A stretch of DNA of 64,000 nucleotides from Octopus sinensis (Eukaryota): the NCBI RefSeq assembly GCF_006345805.1, contig NC_043021.1, positions 17,360,001-17,424,000 on the forward strand, in the 5' to 3' direction. Below are positions 2,087-62,013 of the stretch, piece after piece; within the stretch, counting starts at the first letter, position 1; each line of letters begins with the position of its first letter. The notes below the pieces were generated by a model. The model made no database searches. It saw only the letters and a program-made list of their open reading frames with translations, and was not told where the DNA came from. The position numbers and the translations under genes are program-made.

Positions 2087-3067
2087 TTATTCGGCATCTG
2101 AACCGAGTCTGTCCAGCATGTGGTAGTTGAAATGGACTCGGTTTTCGAGGAAGACTTCGTTGGTTTTCTCCAGACTGACCGGTAAGCAACAACATCGGTC
2201 AGTGAGCGCCAGTTTGTATGTGATGAGCCAGATGATGAAGATGACTATGAAATTGGCCATGCCATGGGCCGCAAAGTACGTGGACAGAATGCTGATGTTG
2301 TAGTCCGTGATGTCCCACTTGTACGGGGAGCAGATGATCGTGCCGTAGTGGCACAGCCACGTGCCCTGCACGAGTGTGACGAACGAGCGTACGAATGGGA
2401 AGACTACCTGGTTGCGATAGTGGAACTCCAGTATGGTCACCACGACGGTCATAATGGCACAGTAAGTGACCAAGTTCTCACCGATCGAAGCCAGGCTGTC
2501 GTCTCGTTCATCGTCCATGACGTAGTGACCGAACAGAATTGCCTCGACGCCGAACGCGAATATGAAGATGCAGTAGTCGAGGCCCTGCGGCAGGCTATAA
2601 GTGCACGTCTGTGACCCGATGTTCACCAAACACGAGAGTCCGAAAGCCACAAGGATTATACAAGACCGCAATTTCAACATACTATTTTTAGCGTCGTTCA
2701 GTTCGGCACCCGCTCCAGCGCCACCACCGACCCAGTTGATTCCAGGCACATGTCGGTAATTTGTGACGAGTAAAAGGCCACAGATGATGAGGCAGATCTC
2801 GATGAAACTCTGTATCAGCTGCTTCCAGCGTTGCTTGCTGCAGGGGTAGACGAGCGACGAATGAAACTCGACGTGTTTCCACCTCATGAAGAAGAAGATG
2901 CGGGTCGTTTGCACGGTCCACCATAACGAGTACAGGATGAACATGACTCCGAGGATGAGGAAGTCAATGTAAGCACAAGCGAGTTCGGTATTGCTGTTGT
3001 TGCTGCTGCCGCTGCCGCTGGCCGGTGCATCGCTGCCTCCTTGACTTACGTTTGCACTGTGCACCAT
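2087..3067 (-). CDS. TMEM45/DUF716-family multi-pass membrane protein, 326 aa, single coding exon
   Basis: Long non-repetitive, GC-elevated ORF with ~7 hydrophobic segments. Motifs LPQGLDY, VEAILF, LVQGTW, KWD and YFAAH match recalled TMEM45 motifs (VPLGVD, MEGFLF, LQGTWFWQIG, EWD, CFCWH). Confidence 0.85.
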   Translation of the reverse strand: MVHSANVSQGGSDAPASGSGSSNNSNTELACAYIDFLILGVMFILYSLWWTVQTTRIFFFMRWKHVEFHSSLVYPCSKQRWKQLIQSFIEICLIICGLLLVTNYRHVPGINWVGGGAGAGAELNDAKNSMLKLRSCIILVAFGLSCLVNIGSQTCTYSLPQGLDYCIFIFAFGVEAILFGHYVMDDERDDSLASIGENLVTYCAIMTVVVTILEFHYRNQVVFPFVRSFVTLVQGTWLCHYGTIICSPYKWDITDYNISILSTYFAAHGMANFIVIFIIWLITYKLALTDRCCCLPVSLEKTNEVFLENRVHFNYHMLDRLGSDAE

Positions 3068-3074
3068 CCTTTAA

Positions 3075-26890: not shown

Positions 26891-27407
26891 ACATTTTCTA
26901 TTCCTGAGCGTTATACTAATACATCTGTTTGTTTTATACACCACCTGTCTTCGTCTTTTTTTTTTCGTAAACTCTCCCTATGTATACAAGTATATATATA
27001 TATATATATATATATAAGATAAATGAAAAAGTGTATTGTAAATAAACAACAACGGTAGAAAACGTATAGCGTATAGTAAGTGTACAATTGGAATGGGGGA
27101 CAGACACAGAATGTCCCTAATTCTTCATCGGTTATCGGCCAGATGATATTACTCAGTTTCGCACCTTCGATGATAAGGACTTTCCTTGCTGATAAGGACT
27201 TCTCGAGGAAGTTGCGGAGAATATAGGGCCGAGAGCAACCAAAATAGTACAGAGTGGACACACGACAGTGAATAAATGTAATTTAAGACAATGGTCAAAG
27301 ACGAAACAATCAAGAAACGAGTAAACACACACACACACATATATATACCTGTGTGTGTGTATGTGTGTATATATATATATATACCTGTATATATATATAT
27401 ATGTACC

Positions 27408-27442
<35 letters not shown>

Positions 27443-27913
27443 ATATATATATATATATATACTTGTATATATAAATAGATGTGTGTATTTTTCCCTTGTT
27501 AACAATTAACCTGTACATACATACATACACACACACACATATATACATACACACACATAAACAAATGTCTGTATGGATGTTTTAAGTAAAGATTACGAAA
27601 GAAAAATAACTCAGAGTCTAGTGGCATCTATGTGATCAATATAAACAAGTATATATATATATATGTATATATATGTGTGTGTGTGTATGTTTCTTTATAT
27701 ATAATTTTTATACCTATATTATTGCGGCGTACGTAGACTCGTTCCCTTATGTATGCTTACATTCTATCCATTTGTACGACTTCTAAAAACTTTCTCTATA
27801 CTTCACTTTCTGTCTTTCTCTTTCTCGCCTTGATTCTTTGGTCCCCCTCTTCCCCCACGAATGAACAAAACCAACATACCAGGTTTTGTTCATTCATGAT
27901 ATATTTTGAATTC

Positions 27914-27977
27914 GTTTCACTGAAGAGCAAGAGACGTAGATAATACATTAATTGCGAAATCACAGGTGATCTGGAAC
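27914..27977 (+). ncRNA. Type I hammerhead ribozyme with canonical core, AUC cleavage triplet
   Basis: gtttca-CTGAAGA-gcaa...ttgc-GAAA-tcac-ag-gtga-TC-tggaac; all three stems pair. Confidence 0.8.
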
Positions 27978-29844
27978 TAAATTCTGTTTTTAAATGTCTT
28001 GCTTCGAGAGCTGCATTCGGTACGATTTGTTTATTTTTGGTAGTTATGACTTTAAAAGTCCGTCCTAGCGTGTGGCATTTATGTGTAATAATGCCCTCTA
28101 TATAATATAAATAAATATTTTCAAGTTAAAAAATTTACAGATTTTTTCTCTTATGAGGTTTTTCACGCTAACTACCTGATAATTTCTTATTAAGATTTTA
28201 TCCTATTTTAAATATATATATATATATTATATATTATATTATATAATATATATAATAGTTGAAATTTAGAGAAAAACATATATAATCATCATCACTTAAC
28301 GTCCGCTTTCCATGCTAGAATGGGTTGGACGATTTGACTGAGGGCTGGCGAACCAGATGGCTGCACCAGGCTCCAATCTTGATCTGGCAGAGTTTCTACA
28401 GCTGAATGCCCTTCCTAACGCCAACCACTCCGAGAGTGTAGTGGATGCTTTTACGTGCCACCAGCACGGGTGTCAGTCAGGCGGTACTGGCAACGACTTC
28501 GCTCGAATGTTTTTACCCGTACCAGTAAGGCGATGCTGGTAACGATCACGCTCGAATGGTGCCTTTTACATGCCACCGGACGTCACATATTTAACACCCC
28601 TCCTCCCTTAACACACACCATTTTCTGGTATTTTTCAAATGATTGGTCGCCTTGAGCTCTTGTCATTTTGGCCCGACACTCAACTAGTCTTGAAATGTGT
28701 TGTCATTCAGAAAACATGGGTTCAGCTTAAACGAAGGTTTGCTTCTTGGAGCAAAAAGACAAAGGAAACACTTTGAAGGTAATGGCAATAGAATTTAACG
28801 AGTTTTAGGCCAAATTTTATGCTGGTAATTTGTTAGGGTTCGTCAACCATCATAAAAAAATGCTTAGCTGTTGTAATACAACTTTACAGAACCCTATATT
28901 GTAATTGATCACAAGCGGATGCTATAATGTCTATTTGGGGACTGATTCAAGAAGATGGCTTCTAATGATCGTCTGCTTCACGCGCCTTTGCATTGAGCAG
29001 TACATTAACAACATGTGCGATCTTTGTGCTTCCTTAGAATCTTCTATGTTTGGCTGCCACTTTTCTTCCAATTGATTTCATATTTGGTGTATCGATGTAG
29101 TTTTGTATGGTAATCATTGACATGAAATTCATTTCTGCCATAAATCAATAAATAAAGAGTTAATAGCTTTTAAAATTTCCAAATTTGTGTACTTTTTAGC
29201 CAATCGAAAGCCACAGACATGTAGGTGCCTGTTTCCATAGTAACAATCCAAACTGTAAATAAGTTGCTTATTAAATGCTTAAAACATGATGTATGAGGTA
29301 GTCGGGAGATGTGCAAAAAATGATAGCTAAATAGGCCTTAAATTACGAACCCCAATTTTTTGTGCATAATCGTATAAATTCCAGCGTAAAATACAAATTC
29401 GCAAACATTTTTCTGAAAATTCAAAACATTTTTTAAAGTTACAAGTTTTTATATGATGTGCATATAGCAGAATCCCGTCAATATTTCACTTGTTTACAGT
29501 TGACAACACGTAATGACAGCTTCCAAATCCTATTTTCTGACTGGGTAAAAACGATCAAACTTTTAACTTTTTTTTAAAAAATGCTTCCGGAAAAAGTGAG
29601 ATTCAGCATGGAAAATTACCCCAATACACCAGATTTCAAAATTTTCACTAAACTTTGAAATTTCCACAGGTGCAACCAGACAGAAAAAAGTCCCTTATTG
29701 ACAACTTATGCATTGCATATGTATGTATGCAATGCATATATGTGTATATGCATGTAAGCTGCGTTCATATGCTTTGCGTCTATGTATGAGTTCATGCTTG
29801 AATCTGTTTATACGGATACATATATAATAGTATATCTGATTGTA

Positions 29845-31103
29845 CGAGGGGCGTTCAATAAGTAATGCCCCCTGACCCACTTGCAGTTGTTTGATCTATG
29901 TGAAATTTTGCATGTGCACTTATTTATACCTCTATAGATTAAGTGGCGAATTACAGCTCTGAACTAATTGTGGTTTCTGATTTACAGGTGTTTGAACTAA
30001 GTCAAGTGTGAAATGGAGCCTGTTGAGTGTCGAGCAGTGATCTGGTTTTTGTATTTGAAAGGACGCACACCACGGGAGACTTTTGATGAAATGAAAGTAA
30101 CTTATGGTGATGATACCCCATCATATGACCTTGTAAACGCTGGCATTGTGAATTCAAACATAGTCGGAACTCTGTGGAAACAGCTCCCAGATCTGGTCGC
30201 CCCCTTCTGCCGTTGATGAGACGTCTGTCCGTCAAGTTGAGGCTGCCATTTTGGAAGGTCAACGCATAACTATTCGCCAAATAGCCCATAAGGTCAAGAT
30301 TAGTACCGGGTCTTTGGAAACTATCATTCATGACCATTTGCATATGCAAAAGGTGTCTGCCAGATGGATTTCCAGGTTGCTCACACCTTTCCAGAAGCAA
30401 GAACGCGTTGAGTGCTCGAGGATGAATTTGGAGATGTGCCAAGAAGATGAGTCAAAATTTTTCAAAAGACTGATCACACAGGATAAAACCTGGGTCCATC
30501 ACTATGATCCATAGACCAAAGTCCAGTCAATGCAGTGAAAGCACCGCGACTCACCTCCTCCAAAGAAGGCAAGGGTGCAGCCCTCCGCTGACAAGGTTAT
30601 GCTCACAGTCTTCTGGGACCAGGACGGAGTAGTGATGACAGATTTCCTGGCAAAGGGTACCACAATTACAGGAGCCTATTATTATGCTTCACTTTTGAGG
30701 AAATTAAGAGAAGGAGGCGGGGCAAGATCAGCAAAGGCATCCTCCTCCTGCAGGACAACGCTCCGGTTCACCTCTCGCGTGTCGCCAGATCAGAAGTACA
30801 GGCGTGCAGCTATGAACTCCTCCCCTTGCACCCTCTGATTTTCACCTCTTCCCAGTCATGAGTTGATTTTGAAAGGAAAGCGTTTCCCAGATGATGCAGC
30901 GCCTTGATTCTGAAGTCACGTCGTGGTTGGAGGACCAAGCTGGGGTCTTCTACAAAAACGTCTCCAGAGCTGTATCAAACGATGGGAGAAATGCATAACT
31001 CTGGGTAGTTCCTATGTAGGAAAAGACTAATAACTGTGCCAAGTGTCGTTGCTCTACTGCTATGGGAAGTGGGTCAGGGGCATTACTTATTGAACGCCCC
31101 TCG
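29845..31103 (+). mobile_element. Full-length defective mariner transposon (~1.26 kb, irritans/Hsmar2-like) with TA TSD
   Basis: TIR cgaggggcgttcaataagtaatgcccc(c)tgacccactt at both ends, flanked by TA. Transposase from 30013 with RAVI.FL, WISRLL, ITQDKTWVHHYDP, KVMLTVFWD and QDNAPVH; stops and frameshifts present. Confidence 0.95.
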
Positions 31104-32471
31104 TACGTATATGAGCAAGCACGTATCTAACTTATGTGTACATGTGCACTAATAGGCTAAAAGCCTTATTCTAAAGAAAATAAACCAAACATGCCATCGA
31201 GTGAATGTGGGACAGGAAGCCGAATTCTTTGAAGTCGACAAATTCGTATTTGGGACTCTCTCTCTCTTTTACTTGTTTCAGTCATTTGATTGCGGCCATG
31301 CTGGAGCGCCGCCTTTAGTCGAGCAAATCGACCCCGGGACTTATTCTTTGTAAGCCCAGTACTTATTCTATCGGTCTCTTTTTTGCCGAACCGCTATGTG
31401 ACGGGGACGTAAACACACCAGCATCGGTTGTCAAGCAATGCTAAGTGGACAAACACAGACACACAAACACACACGGTATTTCGTCTGCCGTTACGTTCTG
31501 AGTTCAAATTCCGCCGAGGTCGACTTTGCCTTTCATCCTTTCGGGGTCGATAAATTAAGTACCAGTTACGCACTGTGGTCGATGTAATCGACTTAATCCC
31601 TTTGTCTGTCCTTGTTTGTTCCCTCTATGTTTAGCCCCTTGTGGGCAATAAAGAAATAATTACTCTTTACTCTCTTTTACTTGTTTCAGTCATTTGACTG
31701 CGGCCATGCTGGAGCACGGCCTTTAGTCGAGCAAATCGACCCCGGGACTTACCCTTTGTAAGCCCAGTACTTATTCTATCGGTCCTTGTGCCGAACCGCT
31801 AAGTGACGGGGACGTAAACACACCAGCATCGGTTCTCAAGGAATGCTAGGGGGACAAACACACACACATATATATATGTATATACATATATACGACAGGC
31901 TTCTTTCAGTTTCCGTCTACCAAATCCACTCACAAGGCATTCGTCGGCCCGGGGTTATAGCAGAAGAAACTTGCCCAAGATGCCACGCAGTGGGACTGAA
32001 CCCGGAACCATGTGGTTGCGGAATTTTATCCATCAATTTCCTAACTACGAGAGACTAAAAGAAATGGAAGTGATTTTGACGTTTAAAGCTGAAGCTTTTC
32101 TCCAAAAACAGGACAAAGGTGTATAGACAGAAGGAAGAGGTATAGAGGAAGGGTAAAATAGGGCCAGAGAAATATAAAACGATCTGCATCAAACTTATAT
32201 GAGTCTGAGACGTTTTAGCACAACTGATTCGATGCTGACTTCCTTGACAACAGACAGTCTAATGTTTCTCCCATTCTCTCTGTTTATGCATATGAGCATC
32301 TAGTTATGTTTGTATGTGTAATGTCTCTCTCTTTCTCTCTACTTATCTATCTCTGTATGTGTATGCTTATTTGCCTTCAGTGCCGAAGCAGTTTGATGTC
32401 CAATCAGTCCTCGTAGTATCCAAAGAGCCACACACATACGCATATATGTGTGTGTGTGTGTGTGGTGTATA

Positions 32472-32514
<43 letters not shown>

Positions 32515-32873
32515 ATATATGCCTTCTGGCATGTATATATATATATATAATGCCTTCTGGCATGTATGTATAATGCCCTCTATATATAAATTAATATGTT
32601 CAATAAGAAATAATTATTTTCGAAATTTTTTCTCTTATGAGGTTTTTACGCTATCTACCTGACAATTTCTTGTTAAGTTTTCCTTATAAGTAGTTGTCCT
32701 TAATTGCTAAATTTTTATTCCGAAAAAACTTTTCCTCTCCCGAAATGCAATTCGTAAAAGTTTGCCATTTACCCGGATGTGATATATGTAAACTCACCCA
32801 TGTGCTTCGTTGATGTTGATCAGTTAGCTGATCGGCTTAAGCGGGGCAGGGTCGTTGTTTATTTATAACATTC

Positions 32874-32921
32874 AGGCCTGCTGATGATTACGTAAGTATG
32901 AAATCACTGTGATACAGGTCT
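32874..32921 (+). ncRNA. Type I hammerhead ribozyme, array copy 1
   Basis: aggcctg-CTGATGA-t-tac-gtaa-gta-t-GAAA-tcac-t-gtga-TA-caggtct; predicted cut after 32914 (AUA). Confidence 0.8.
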
Positions 32922-33348
32922 ATATTTTTAAATGTCTTACTTTGAAAAATTGCATTCGGTGGGAGTAGTAATATTTTGGTAGAAATGACTGATTGTCCCT
33001 CTTAGCGTTTGGCATGTATGTATAATGCCTTCTGGCATGTATGTATAATGCCCTCTATATATAAATTATATGTTCAATAAGAAATAATTATTTTCGAAAT
33101 TTTTTCTCTTATGAGGTTTTTACGCTATCTACCTGACAATTTCTTGTTAAGTTTTCCTTATTAAGTAGTTGTCCTTAATTGCTAAATTTTTATTCCGAAA
33201 AAACTTTTCCTCTCCCGAAATGCAATTCGTAAAAAGTTTGCCATTTACCGGATGTGATATATGTAAACTCACCCATGTGCTTCGTGATGTTGATCAGTTA
33301 GCTGATCGGCTTAGCGGGGCAGGGTCGTTGTTTATTTATAATACATTC

Positions 33349-33395
33349 AGGCCTGCTGATGATTACGTAAATATGAAATCACTGTGATACAGTCT
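33349..33395 (+). ncRNA. Type I hammerhead ribozyme, array copy 2 (stem II G>A, 1-nt stem I deletion)
   Basis: aggcctg-CTGATGA-ttacgtaaatat-GAAA-tcactgtga-TA-cagtct. Confidence 0.65.
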
Positions 33396-33822
33396 ATATT
33401 TTTAAATGTCTTACTTTGAAAAATTGCATTCGGTGGGATTAGTAATATTTTGGTAGAAATGACTGATTGTCCCTCTTAGCGTTTGGCATGTATGTATAAT
33501 GCCTTCTGGCATGTATGTACAATGCCCTCTATATATAAATTAATATGTTCAATAAGAAATAATTATTTTCGAATTTTTTCTCTTATGAGGTTTTTACGCT
33601 ATCTACCTGACAATTTCTTGTTAATTTTTCTTATTAAGTAGTTGTCCTTAATTGCTAAATTTTTATTCCGAAAAAACTTTTCCTCTCCCGAAATGCAATT
33701 CGTAAAAGTTTGCCATTTACCCGGATGTGATATATGTAAACTCACCCCACCATGTGCTTGTATGTTGATCAGTTAGCTGATCGGCTTAAGCGGGGCAGGG
33801 TCGTTGTTTATTTATAACATTC

Positions 33823-33870
33823 AGGCCTGCTGATGATTACGTAAGTATGAAATCACTGTGATACAGGTCT
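33823..33870 (+). ncRNA. Type I hammerhead ribozyme, array copy 3
   Basis: Identical to copy 1. Confidence 0.8.
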
Positions 33871-34299
33871 ATATTTTTAAATGTCTTACTTTGAAAAATT
33901 GCATTCGGTGGGATTAGTAATATTTTGGTAGAAATGACTGATTGTCCCTCTTAGCGTTTGGCATGTATGTATAATGCCTTCTGGCATGTATGTATAATGC
34001 CCTCTATATATAAATTAATATGTTCAATAAGAAATAATTATTTTCGAAATTTTTTCTCTTATGAGGTTTTTACGCTATCTACCTGACAATTTCTTGTTAA
34101 GTTTTCCTTATTAAGTAGTTGTCCTTAATTGCTAAATTTTATTTCCGAAAAAACTTTTCCTCTCCCGAAATGCAATTCGTAAAAGTTTGCCATTTACCCG
34201 GATGTGATATATGTAAACTCACCCATTGCTTCGTTGATGTTGATCAGTTAGCTGATCGGCTTAAGCGGGGCAGGGTCGTTGTTTATTTATAATACATTC

Positions 34300-34347
34300 A
34301 GGCCTGCTGATGATTACGTAAGTATGAAATCACTGTGATACAGGTCT
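34300..34347 (+). ncRNA. Type I hammerhead ribozyme, array copy 4
   Basis: Identical to copy 1. Confidence 0.8.
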
Positions 34348-34799
34348 ATATTTTTAAATGTCTTACTTTGAAAAATTGCATTCGGTGGGATTAGTAATAT
34401 TTTGGTAGAAATGACTGATTGTCCCTCTTAGCGTTTGGCATGTATGTATAATGCCTTCTGGCATGTATGTATAATGCCTTCTGGCATGTATGTATAATGC
34501 CCTCTATATATAAATTAATATGTTCAATAAGAAATATTATTTTCGAAATTTTTTCTCTTATGAGGTTTTTACGCTATCTACCTGACAATTTCTTGTTAAG
34601 TTTTCCTTATTAAGTAGTTGTCCTTAATTGCTAAATTTTTATTATCCGAAAAAACTTTTCCTCTCCCGAAATGCAATTCGTAAAAGTTTGCCATTTACCC
34701 GGATGTGATAATGTAAACTCACCCATGTGCTTCGTTGATGTTGATCAGTTAGCTGATCGGCTTAAGCGGGGCAGGGTCGTTGTTTATTTATATACATTC

Positions 34800-34847
34800 A
34801 GGCCTGCTGATGATTACGTAAGTATGAAATCACTGTGATACAGGTCT
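34800..34847 (+). ncRNA. Type I hammerhead ribozyme, array copy 5
   Basis: Identical to copy 1. Confidence 0.8.
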
Positions 34848-34991
34848 ATATTTTTAAATGTCTTACTTTGAAAAATTGCATTCGGTGGGATTAGTAATAT
34901 TTTTGGTAGAAATGACTGATTGTCCCTCTTAGCGTTTGGCATGTATGTATAATGCCTTCTGGCATGTATGTATAATGCCCTCTATATATAA

Positions 34992-35031
<40 letters not shown>

Positions 35032-35039
35032 TATATAAA

Positions 35040-35320
35040 TATGGCCCAGTGGTTAGGGCAGCAGACTCGCGGTTTCGATTCCCAGACCGGGCGTTGTGAG
35101 TGTTTATTGAGCGAAAACACCTAAAGCTCCACGAGGCTTCGGCAGGGTGGTAGTGGCGATCCCTGCTGTACTCTTTCGCCACTCTTTTTCTCACTCTTTC
35201 TTCTGTTGGCCTGCTCGCTTAGCCAGCGGGGTGGCGTCATTTGAAGGCTAAAACAATGTGAAGCGCATTGTGACCGGTGATGTGTAGCAACATCTGATAG
35301 CCTGGTCGGTCACGGTGATA
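35040..35320 (+). mobile_element. tRNA-derived SINE sharing the OR-like head but with a different tail; a partial head also lies at 12209-12363
   Basis: Same head as 24934, with a deletion between two tcgcggt repeats; tail ...gatagcctggtcggtcacggtgata. Confidence 0.75.
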
Positions 35321-40855: not shown

Positions 40856-42805
40856 TCAGCCTTGCACAGTGAAACTCTTTTCAATCTGGAGTTCAATCAA
40901 GTCCATGAAGCAGATCTTCGTCTCTCCACTGTCGAGAAGTTCACGGATTTTTCTGTTACATGGTTTATAAGGGACGTCCACATTCTGCACAAGGTACTTC
41001 GAGATAAGATAGTCGAGGGCGTTGATCTTCGTCACGCCGCTCTGGTGGTCTTTGCTGTTCTTCACCTGCTGAGCGGCCGACAAGCACTTCTCCACGAAGG
41101 CCGGATCCTTCGCCGACACCGGCGACACGTTCTCCTTGCTGCTGCTACTGCTGTGGCGCTTATGACCCGCTGTTGCTGCCGCCTCTTCGTCCTTGCCGTT
41201 TTTCGCGGCGCGCCCCACCTCTTCGCTCTCGTCGAGGCTCGGCTCCTTCTTCTTCCTCCGTTTGTTATTACAATCACTCTCCTCCGACTCCCCTTCATCA
41301 TCAGCATCATCATCACTGCTGCCTTCACCTTTACTCTTAGTCCCGCCTCCTCCTCCTGAGGCCCCTCTCTTTTTGCTGGTGACGTCTGTGGTGAGCACAC
41401 TTTCCGAGTGACTAGATTCCTCCCTGTTCGTTCTATTTTCACTAGCGTTATGGTTCCGACTCTGACTTGTATCTTCTTTATTTTCTACTTCATCGCTTTT
41501 GTTGTCTCCACTGTCACCATCATTGCTCTGGCTGTTATTACTACTGCTGTTAATACTACTACTATTATTATTATTATTAATATTATCATTATCATCATCA
41601 TCATCATCATTATTATATTATTATTATTATTACTATTACTATTACTACCACCACCGTTGCCAGTAGAAACGCTGTCACCATCACCGCATCCTTCACCAGA
41701 GCTATCCTCTCTCTCGCTATTTTGTCCTCTAGTTGTTGTGGTTGTTGTTGTTGTTGTCACTGGTGTTGTCGTCGTTAGTGAATTTGGTGTTGTTGATGCT
41801 GATGTTGTTGTTGTTGTTGTTGCTGCTGCTGCTGCTGCCTGGTTGCCATCATGTTGCTGCTGCTGCTGCTGGTGATGCAAACTTCTGCTCGACAGACTCA
41901 TTTCGCTCGTCGCCTGCGAACAGCCGTTCAGGAGATGATGCATAAGATTCAGATAATTCTCTGGGGCCCTGTTTACCGAGCTGGGCGGCTCCCACCGGTC
42001 GTTGAGGACATCCTTACTCGAGTCGTCGACATCGATGTCCACTTCCATGTCGGCCGCTTCGTCCTCAGTTCCACCCTTGTGGTCAATATCTGTGACGTCA
42101 ATATCTTTCCGCTTGGCCGCTGTTGCCGTGGACAACGATGATGATGATTCCATGGGCTCCTCCTCTTTGTTTTCTTCCTCCCCATCTTCCCCGTACCTTC
42201 GGCGCTGACGTTGTTGTTGTTGTTGTTGTTCGGAGATGGCAGACGAGCAGGTTGTCTTTGATGGGGTTTCCTCATCAATTGTGATACAGTTGCTAGCGTT
42301 GTAGCTGTTGATCATGTCTGGGGCTAATCTCGAGGAAGGGGCCACTCGCTTCCCGTAACAAGGACCATTCGAAGATGTGATGTTGTTACTGCTGTTGTTG
42401 TTGCTGTGGCTGCTTGTGAGGTCCGTAGTGTTACTTGGGCAGTTCATTACTCGGGGCCAGCTGGGGGTTGAAGACGCGATAGGGCATGACTGGGGCCGAC
42501 TCAGCAGTCTGATTTCATCAGAAGGGGGCACATCCCTTGTGCGACATGTCATGGCAATGTCTGGTTGTAGGCGGGCATATTTAAGTTGGTCGTCAAATCG
42601 CCACTGGTAGCAACCGTCGACAGCGACGATGGGTGGTGGTGGAGGGGGCAACGGCGGCACCACGGTCATCATTGTGGCCTGTCGCATCTGGTGCTTTTGT
42701 CTGAGGAGTTGGCGCAAATGTGACGGCGCTCTTTGGCACTCGCAGGACTTGATCAAGCATAAGGGCCGTTCTTGAAAGCCGCAGTTTTGTGGTTGCTGCT
42801 GCTGA

Positions 42806-42867
<62 letters not shown>

Positions 42868-42969
42868 TTCCTTGGGGTTGCGTTTTGTTGAGTGTACGCT
42901 GAGGTCCAGAGGTTCCATGGCTTCGTCTTCTTCAATCGGATTCATGTAATTTGTGATGTGAGATTCCAT
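40856..42969 (-). CDS. Uncharacterised ~704-aa low-complexity nuclear protein, putative co-repressor scaffold; one reading frame broken by a 1-bp deletion at ~41617
   Basis: The 494-aa and 180-aa ORFs join without stops if one A is restored in (AAT)n. Splice acceptor tttcag at 43041-43046 and an in-frame upstream stop at 43015-43017. Contains PLDLS, LRQLL, polyQ, the NLS-like KRRKKK and a non-repetitive helical C-terminus. Confidence 0.75.
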
Positions 42970-43836
42970 TTCACTGGTTCTCTGTGGCTTCTTGGTGCTG
43001 CCAGGTGGGTTTAATTAACAAATTCTTCACCCATTCAAAACTGAAAATATACAAAAAATAAAAAAAAAAGAGAAAAAATATTAGTCACAATTCCCAAAAA
43101 ATTCTTGAGATCAAAAAGTATAATTTTTTCACTTTTTATATATAAAAAAAACTAACAAAAAAAAAAGCAAAAAAGATTCAAAATATCTGTTTCATGTCCA
43201 TTTTTCTATGTCAGCATGAGTTCATTGGATATTTATTTGCAGTGATGGGATGCTTCTCCTGTCATCAACTCTTAATTCTTTTACAAATAAGAGGTTGTCT
43301 TATTCTTTTATCGTCATCATCATTTAACCCTTTCATGACCAACCAGGCTGAAACCGGCTCTGGCTCTGAGTACAAATGTCTTGTTTTCAAAAGTTCTGAA
43401 TTAAAATCTTCCACCAAACCTTAGTCACAATTTATGTTCCTAACACTAGCTCAATGATAACTAAGTTATCTTACTAAATTCTTTGTTATATTTAAAATTG
43501 GTTGGGGAACAAATACAGATACACAAACACACACACACCATCATCATCATCATCATCATCATCTTCGTTTAACGTCCGTTCTCCATGCTAGCATGGGTTG
43601 GACGGTTTGACCGAGGATCTGGGAAGCCAGAAGGCTGCACCAGGCTCCAGTCTGATCTGGCAGTGTTTCTACAGCTGGATGCCCTTCCTAACGCCAACCA
43701 CCCTGTGAGTGTAGTGGGTGCTTTTTACGTGCCACCGGCACAGGTACCAGGCGAGGCTGGCAACGGCCACGATCGGATTGGTGCTTTTTACGTGTGACCG
43801 GCACAGAAAACCAGTTGAGGCGGCGCTGGCATATAT

Positions 43837-61932: not shown

Positions 61933-62013
61933 AGCTCTGATGAAGCTATAAGGCAATACACAAGCACCTAGCTATGAGCACATGGTGTCTTAAAGCAGAA
62001 ACAACTGTAGGCT
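61933..62013 (+). ncRNA. Type I hammerhead-like motif with long stem II, GUA triplet
   Basis: agct-CTGATGA-a-gct.taaggca...tgtctta.agc-a-GAAA-caactg-TA-ggct. Confidence 0.6.

Follow-up and report, generated by a model that had tools for sequence, protein, structure and literature searches.

A hammerhead ribozyme fold has been kept through repeated rewriting of its letters while a non-coding repeat of about 480 bp spread through the octopus genome, a family-wide result that grew out of an impression based on two sequences. The analysis starts from a 64,000-nucleotide stretch of Octopus sinensis DNA (henceforth termed the window), in which positions 27914-27977 form, judged by their letters, a type I hammerhead with predicted self-cleavage. 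We consider it highly probable that this locus is a 5'-truncated copy of the repeat, which is likely a non-LTR retrozyme: its RNA would be self-cleaving, and a reverse transcriptase borrowed from a Penelope-like element would copy it into (TA)n tracts. The parts of the hammerhead are:

27914-27977, forward strand: type I hammerhead with open stem I (motif scan and family covariation)
27914-27919 (gtttca) with 27972-27977 (tggaac), forward strand: stem I, 6 bp (read from the letters)
27920-27926, forward strand: hammerhead core CTGAAGA (CUGAAGA; read from the letters)
between the core and GAAA, forward strand: stem II, 4 bp gcaa/ttgc, plus a distal hairpin (read from the letters)
27933-27949, forward strand: distal hairpin of stem II (alignment and fold)
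27956-27959, forward strand: GAAA of the hammerhead core (read from the letters)
after GAAA, forward strand: stem III tcac-ag-gtga (ucac-ag-guga), followed by TC (read from the letters)
after 27971, forward strand: predicted cut site (C17 position)

The core CUGANGA, the GAAA and the UH at the three-way junction are all present. A sequence-only reading of this DNA had quoted these motifs by position, and every one was found there; its four stem II pairs were borne out, and it had overlooked the distal hairpin. A motif scan of the window returned six hammerhead-like sites, namely this locus, four in a downstream array and a weak one at 61937, against a chance level of 0.075 loose and 0 strong sites per shuffle (40 window shuffles). 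Rfam reported no hammerhead at the gathering score in the whole window and none at E<=5 in 27600-35100, a miss that likely reflects the limit of the library models. With our model R1, which was built including this copy, the motif scores 78.9 bits. Considered on its own, the hammerhead has no folding advantage over shuffles (z 0.38), and stem III is missing from its minimum-energy fold.

Genome-wide, a pattern of core plus stem III gave 3621 and 913 matches (at least 4,534) and none in the reversed control. Family units are mostly 460-497 bp long, non-coding and 33% GC, carry one type I hammerhead each, and are dispersed in many copies over many chromosomes. The window locus had been described as a diverged dispersed relative of the array unit; it is instead a 5'-truncated member of a high-copy sister subfamily of its own, subfamily A. 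A 301-base query from it found 2966 candidates, 40 of which were scored, and the 39 other best full-length places are 91-98% identical. The copy itself is a partial monomer and young, with 98% identity to its nearest relative among the best 40 of the 2966 candidates. Subfamily A also occurs in tandem, with a unit of 468-484 bp (junctions in L005, L009, L016 and L030). The array unit of subfamily B, used as a query, found 1155 candidates, and the best listed are 96-99% identical. Forty places were fetched for varied stem II to sample subfamilies, and the resulting series bridges A and B, running from a long stem II with distal hairpin through stepwise shorter forms to the array's 12-base form. 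The two family members in the window and their surroundings are:

27678-27858, forward strand: fragment of family X, another tandem non-coding repeat of ~800 bp, joined to the copy at its 5' junction (genome matches)
27859-27883, reverse strand: 25-base inverted piece of the ~480-bp unit at the 5' junction, overlapping the direct part by 2 bases (unit alignment)
27882-28213, forward strand: subfamily A copy of the ~480-bp unit, truncated on its 5' side and continuing past end 1 and along the tail as far as end 2 (91-98% relatives and common ends)
28212-28254, no strand: (TA)n tract at the 3' end of the copy, likely the target (sequence)
32520-34995, forward strand: array of 5.1 units of 475 bp, sister subfamily B, stopping at end 1 (repeats and hammerheads)
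32873, 33348 (stem I deletion), 33822, 34299 and 34799, forward strand: array hammerheads, four intact and one damaged

Homology between the two loci, which had been claimed from alignment by eye, holds: in 239 aligned columns, the DNA 3' of the 27914-27977 hammerhead agrees with the array at 72% (E 2.5e-32), and a whole subfamily A unit aligns end to end with the array unit, with 77% of ungapped columns identical. The claim that stems I and II were rewritten was likewise right, as six of the ten pairs changed on both sides and still pair; one changed on one side, two are identical, and the remaining pair, 10.1-11.1, is U-U in the array. Core and stem III had been called conserved. This is true of both window copies, although N7, H17 and loop III differ between them, and beyond the two copies it is weakened by 62 genomic matches to a U4C core (CCGANGA; 1 in the control) and by an invariance that the search pattern partly imposed.

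To compare pairing across the family, we used 27 subfamily representatives, selected by eye for varied stem II and mostly found with the pattern requiring core and stem III. Across them, 95.4% of 521 cells are paired, compared with 21-41% for slid partners as a control. Two-sided change occurs in 13 of 21 pairs, including all six of stem I, and none of 500 shuffles scored as high in this count, which ignores ancestry. Stem III is identical in 27/27; because most representatives came from a pattern demanding both core and stem III, their invariance is not evidence.

Since the shuffle control ignores ancestry, we based a tree solely on downstream DNA and redistributed substitutions along it as a null for a G-test. 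The top three of 12,880 column pairs were hammerhead pairs: 10.2-11.2 reached E 0.027, and two stem I pairs 2.8 and 4.6, with no manual adjustment. The strict all-pairs test thus leaves one pair at E<0.05, or two if a bulged U is manually allowed in two sequences, and a manual rescaling that counts just the 15 proposed pairs brings five below 0.05. With 35 sequences and eight scored pairs, 16 double changes fell on a common branch versus 4.3 expected from matched unpaired columns; 10.4-11.4 was left out of this test, as compression of the alignment makes its two columns neighbors, and one side of 10.3-11.3 never varies. The earlier suggestion that the motif was selected as folded RNA therefore survives family-wide, tree-aware tests. 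A reading by which the covariation reflects common ancestry, or swaps of whole ribozyme blocks between subfamilies, with no selection on pairing, could appeal to the low number of independent events per pair (0-4), to the hand-picking of representatives for varied stem II, and to U4, whose six changes on the flank tree imply an imprecise tree or exchange. Yet the tree-aware nulls are exceeded, the top-scoring columns are base-paired partners rather than other columns of the block, and the signal is lost with slid partners, so we give that reading next to no weight.

Where selection acted is addressed by inserted copies of subfamily B, found through an anchor downstream of the ribozyme: 82 were found and 76 span the ribozyme, six being dropped as truncated; they represent 29 insertions. 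This anchor-picked set replaced earlier decay counts, which we rejected as biased by the picking of loci. The core is intact in 71 of the 76 copies. Singleton substitutions number 13/2812 in core and stems versus 40/9728 elsewhere (p 0.74); for the core alone the figure is 1/836 (p 0.37), a comparison with little power. Assembly errors may be among the substitutions counted throughout this test. Within this limited power, inserted subfamily B copies are without measurable constraint. As individual insertions show no such constraint, the most likely target of selection was the RNA that replicates and not the 27914 locus, and the compensatory changes would mark master lineages, i.e., the RNA that gets copied. 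The covariation is thus evidence of selection between subfamilies; among inserted copies it is not, and so lends no support to a function at 27914.

Co-option of this hammerhead, which would then act on a host transcript, might be read from its intact core and complete stems (six pairs in stem I, four in proximal stem II). The copy is young, however (98% to its nearest relative), and intactness is therefore expected. At 27947 it also has A in place of the G found in 21 of 25 subfamily A copies, a change that breaks one distal-hairpin pair and is common to the window copy and three other copies, and it has a change at 28062 private to it. Inserted copies of the sister subfamily show no measurable constraint, and no host gene was tied to the 27914-27977 site. 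We regard co-option as very improbable, and no host function is indicated at this locus.

The manner of insertion is recorded in the ends of the copies:

28096-28118, forward strand: end 1 (CCTCTATA merging into TA), past which the window copy continues (family ends)
28103-28213, forward strand: tail of ~100 bases, from end 1 to end 2 (family ends)
28039-28176, forward strand: predicted 3' structured module around end 1, with 28039-44/28171-76, 28066-72/28164-70 and a hairpin 28074-78/28091-95 (RNAalifold)

Family copies stop in (TA)n at two fixed sites, either right after GCCCTCTATA (end 1) or ~100 bases further on (end 2), and are truncated or inverted on their 5' side. Among 72 two-armed, diverging loci, 52 combine end 1 with end 2, end 1 occurs on both arms of one locus and end 2 on both arms of none, three pair another end with end 2, and 16 are unreadable, so that 52 of 56 readable loci follow a one-of-each rule. 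The rule also holds in 36 of 38 readable loci once those picked with a tail-bearing query are excluded. This anatomy, i.e., an inverted 5'-truncated arm, a one-ended tail and a (TA)n target, is a Penelope-like footprint. It resembles the inverted 5'-truncated arm, one-ended tail and AT-rich or (TA)n targets described by Frangieh et al. (2024, PMC11167929) and Craig et al. (10.1101/2021.04.23.441226), and differs from those insertions in a tail of ~100 rather than 30-40 bases and in having no reading frame. According to PMC11167929, the pattern arises from two internal reverse transcription start sites, with both target strands cut and extended.

The predicted 3' module is a candidate binding and start signal. 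Its cells are 98.2% paired; two-sided change, found in 4/25 pairs, was matched by 55/500 shuffles, and the module fails the all-pairs tree-null test, its best pair reaching E 3.9 among 14,365 pairs (one of 27 sequences dropped). In a smaller test set, 2/15 proposed pairs fell below 0.01, but the structure was derived from the same alignment. We tentatively suggest, as a joint reading less probable than not, that the 3' fold is the binding and start signal of the Penelope-type enzyme, that two subunits use one start site each per nicked strand, and that the enzyme may switch RNA in one event. Starts by two subunits on separate nicked strands would then yield the strict one-of-each-end rule, and switching between unrelated RNAs would yield chimeras such as the window locus (family X plus subfamily A) and L211 (subfamily A plus a young coding element). 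How animal retrozymes borrow Penelope-like enzymes could be tested through predictions drawn from the two-end rule and the 3' fold. For the junction between family X and subfamily A at the window locus, template switching and a subsequent deletion are each an adequate explanation. The family X fragment has 226 genomic candidates (40 scored), and its repeat has a TA-anchored 3' end, near which lies a hammerhead-like but non-canonical motif.

A search for a helper element found no Penelope-type open reading frame (reverse transcriptase plus GIY-YIG) in the unit or in the window. The genome is rich in young Penelope-like elements whose open frames are long, and two families examined, with 22,813 candidates (128 scored) and 16,092 candidates (110 scored), have TA-anchored ends in common with the ~480-bp unit. 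The 3' sequence of the unit was not found in either family (30 loci each, most family 2 loci ending before the far 3' end). At L211:2462-5990 (G000:C2:106040000-106049500), end 1 of a subfamily A insertion with two arms abuts a 5'-truncated copy, 99% identical, of a young Penelope-like element (family 2), with no TA in between. This one fusion (L014/L211) is a weak lead to a candidate helper, and a later or nested insertion into a TA tract explains it equally. The 3' end of family 2 (L227, L211) has a minimal hammerhead-like motif, CUGUUGA, which amounts to A6U in the core.

These comparisons bear on an alternative in which an autonomous Penelope-like element, so far unseen, sheds the units as solo or tandem pseudo-LTRs. 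Unequal crossover would multiply them locally, the units would form no RNA circle, and the covariation would reflect selection on the RNA of that element. The end anatomy is the same as in Penelope-like elements, such an origin with local amplification has been proposed by Li, Clavereau and Pollet (10.64898/2026.07.22.740005), and we compared two of many Penelope-like families. On the other hand, the tail in tandem copies leads into the same ~170-base non-coding spacer and then to the hammerhead again; tandem units occur in both arms of inverted insertions, on many chromosomes and at 96-99% identity; and among Penelope-type frames in 13 screened loci, the L014/L211 case alone is joined directly to a unit. 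We judge the alternative unlikely and favor a non-LTR retrozyme.

For such a retrozyme, tandem units would be transcribed, the ribozyme would cut after C17, either alone or as a dimer via the palindromic stem III, and the monomers would circularise; these three steps rest on PMC7229834 and are carried over to the ~480-bp unit. A Penelope-like protein would then nick both strands of a TA tract and prime at two internal RNA sites, and tandem arrays would arise when copying went on past one turn of a circular template or into further units of a multimer. A template would need a working fold to be recopied, so that compensatory changes would build up between master lineages while inserted copies decay. 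Treated as circles, young units fold strongly, with z -7.7 (B) and -5.1 (C), and three subfamily A units fold weakly (z -1.1 to -2.6; 25 shuffles each in all cases). From the kept fold, we argue that the ribozyme matters to the life cycle of the element, though PMC11167929 reports that cleavage is dispensable for Penelope insertion in vitro.

The ~480-bp family likely joins a known class, the animal non-LTR retrozymes, which are non-autonomous Penelope-like elements. According to Cervera and de la Pena (2020, PMC7229834), these have a canonical type I hammerhead and AT-rich non-coding tandem repeats in thousands of copies, both as here, a GC content under 45-50%, and a predicted highly self-paired unit, which the B and C units here resemble more than the three A units do; mussel retrozymes likewise reach ~5000 copies, spread over related families, and the U-U that the window array has at the base of stem II also occurs in one axolotl family. 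They differ in size, with RNAs of 170-400 nt and units of 150-450 bp versus ~480 bp here, whereas the present family is split into many subfamilies, of which several carry a distal hairpin on stem II, and has (TA)n insertion and two fixed ends. The study 10.64898/2026.07.22.740005 likewise describes type I hammerhead monomers, dimers and multimers in a genome rich in Penelope-like elements, with a 51-972 bp unit range that covers ~480 bp. There, the vertebrate link is pseudo-LTR homology plus co-occurrence; here it is insertion anatomy, with no homologous pseudo-LTR in the two families checked. The same source reports that 8/9 predicted Xenopus retrozymes were uncut in vitro. The hammerhead of Penelope-like elements is minimal (PMC4209133), in contrast to the canonical one here. 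No paper on this repeat family was among the literature matches listed; supplements may list cephalopod hammerheads, and the words 'ribozyme' and 'retrozyme' are absent from the main text of an octopus repeat annotation (PMC13282606).

The family also provides a natural panel for cleavage assays, in which stem II varies in length and stem I in sequence and some cores are U4C. By hand count of the match list, 27 and 19 of the U4C matches lie in two subfamilies and three in the large B group. These two subfamilies amplified while carrying the core CCGAUGA with stems intact (e.g., L247, L248, L252, L253 and L256; L208, L254 and L257-L260). According to PMC3088659, U4C lowers in vitro activity, and viroid infectivity is still possible. 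More distant families have the same palindromic stem III (L094, L096, L103, L104, L109, L243, L251, L255, L261 and L262) and score 21-43 bits with the family model; most have a similar 3' hairpin, and their flanks gave no BLAST match to the ~480-bp unit where tested.

Several minor observations concern the window itself. Each array unit of subfamily B has a 23-base duplication (33010-33056 in one unit) that doubles the conserved hairpin before end 1. Contigs from 4 of 18 runs were compared with subfamily B, and one run, X3, which we guess to be RNA and whose organism may differ, has 14 A>G changes, clustered, among 23 places of difference from window positions 32700-33170; at seven checked sites, G occurs in 0/82 genomic subfamily B copies. 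The cluster could be A-to-I editing of inverted copies, and as the nature of the run is a guess, we do not count it as evidence. A non-simple stretch of ~300 bases between TA tracts at 27020-27320 may be another mobile fragment. Two long frames lie on the reverse strand: 40859-43014 is polyQ-rich and without a Pfam family, and 2090-3070 encodes DUF716.
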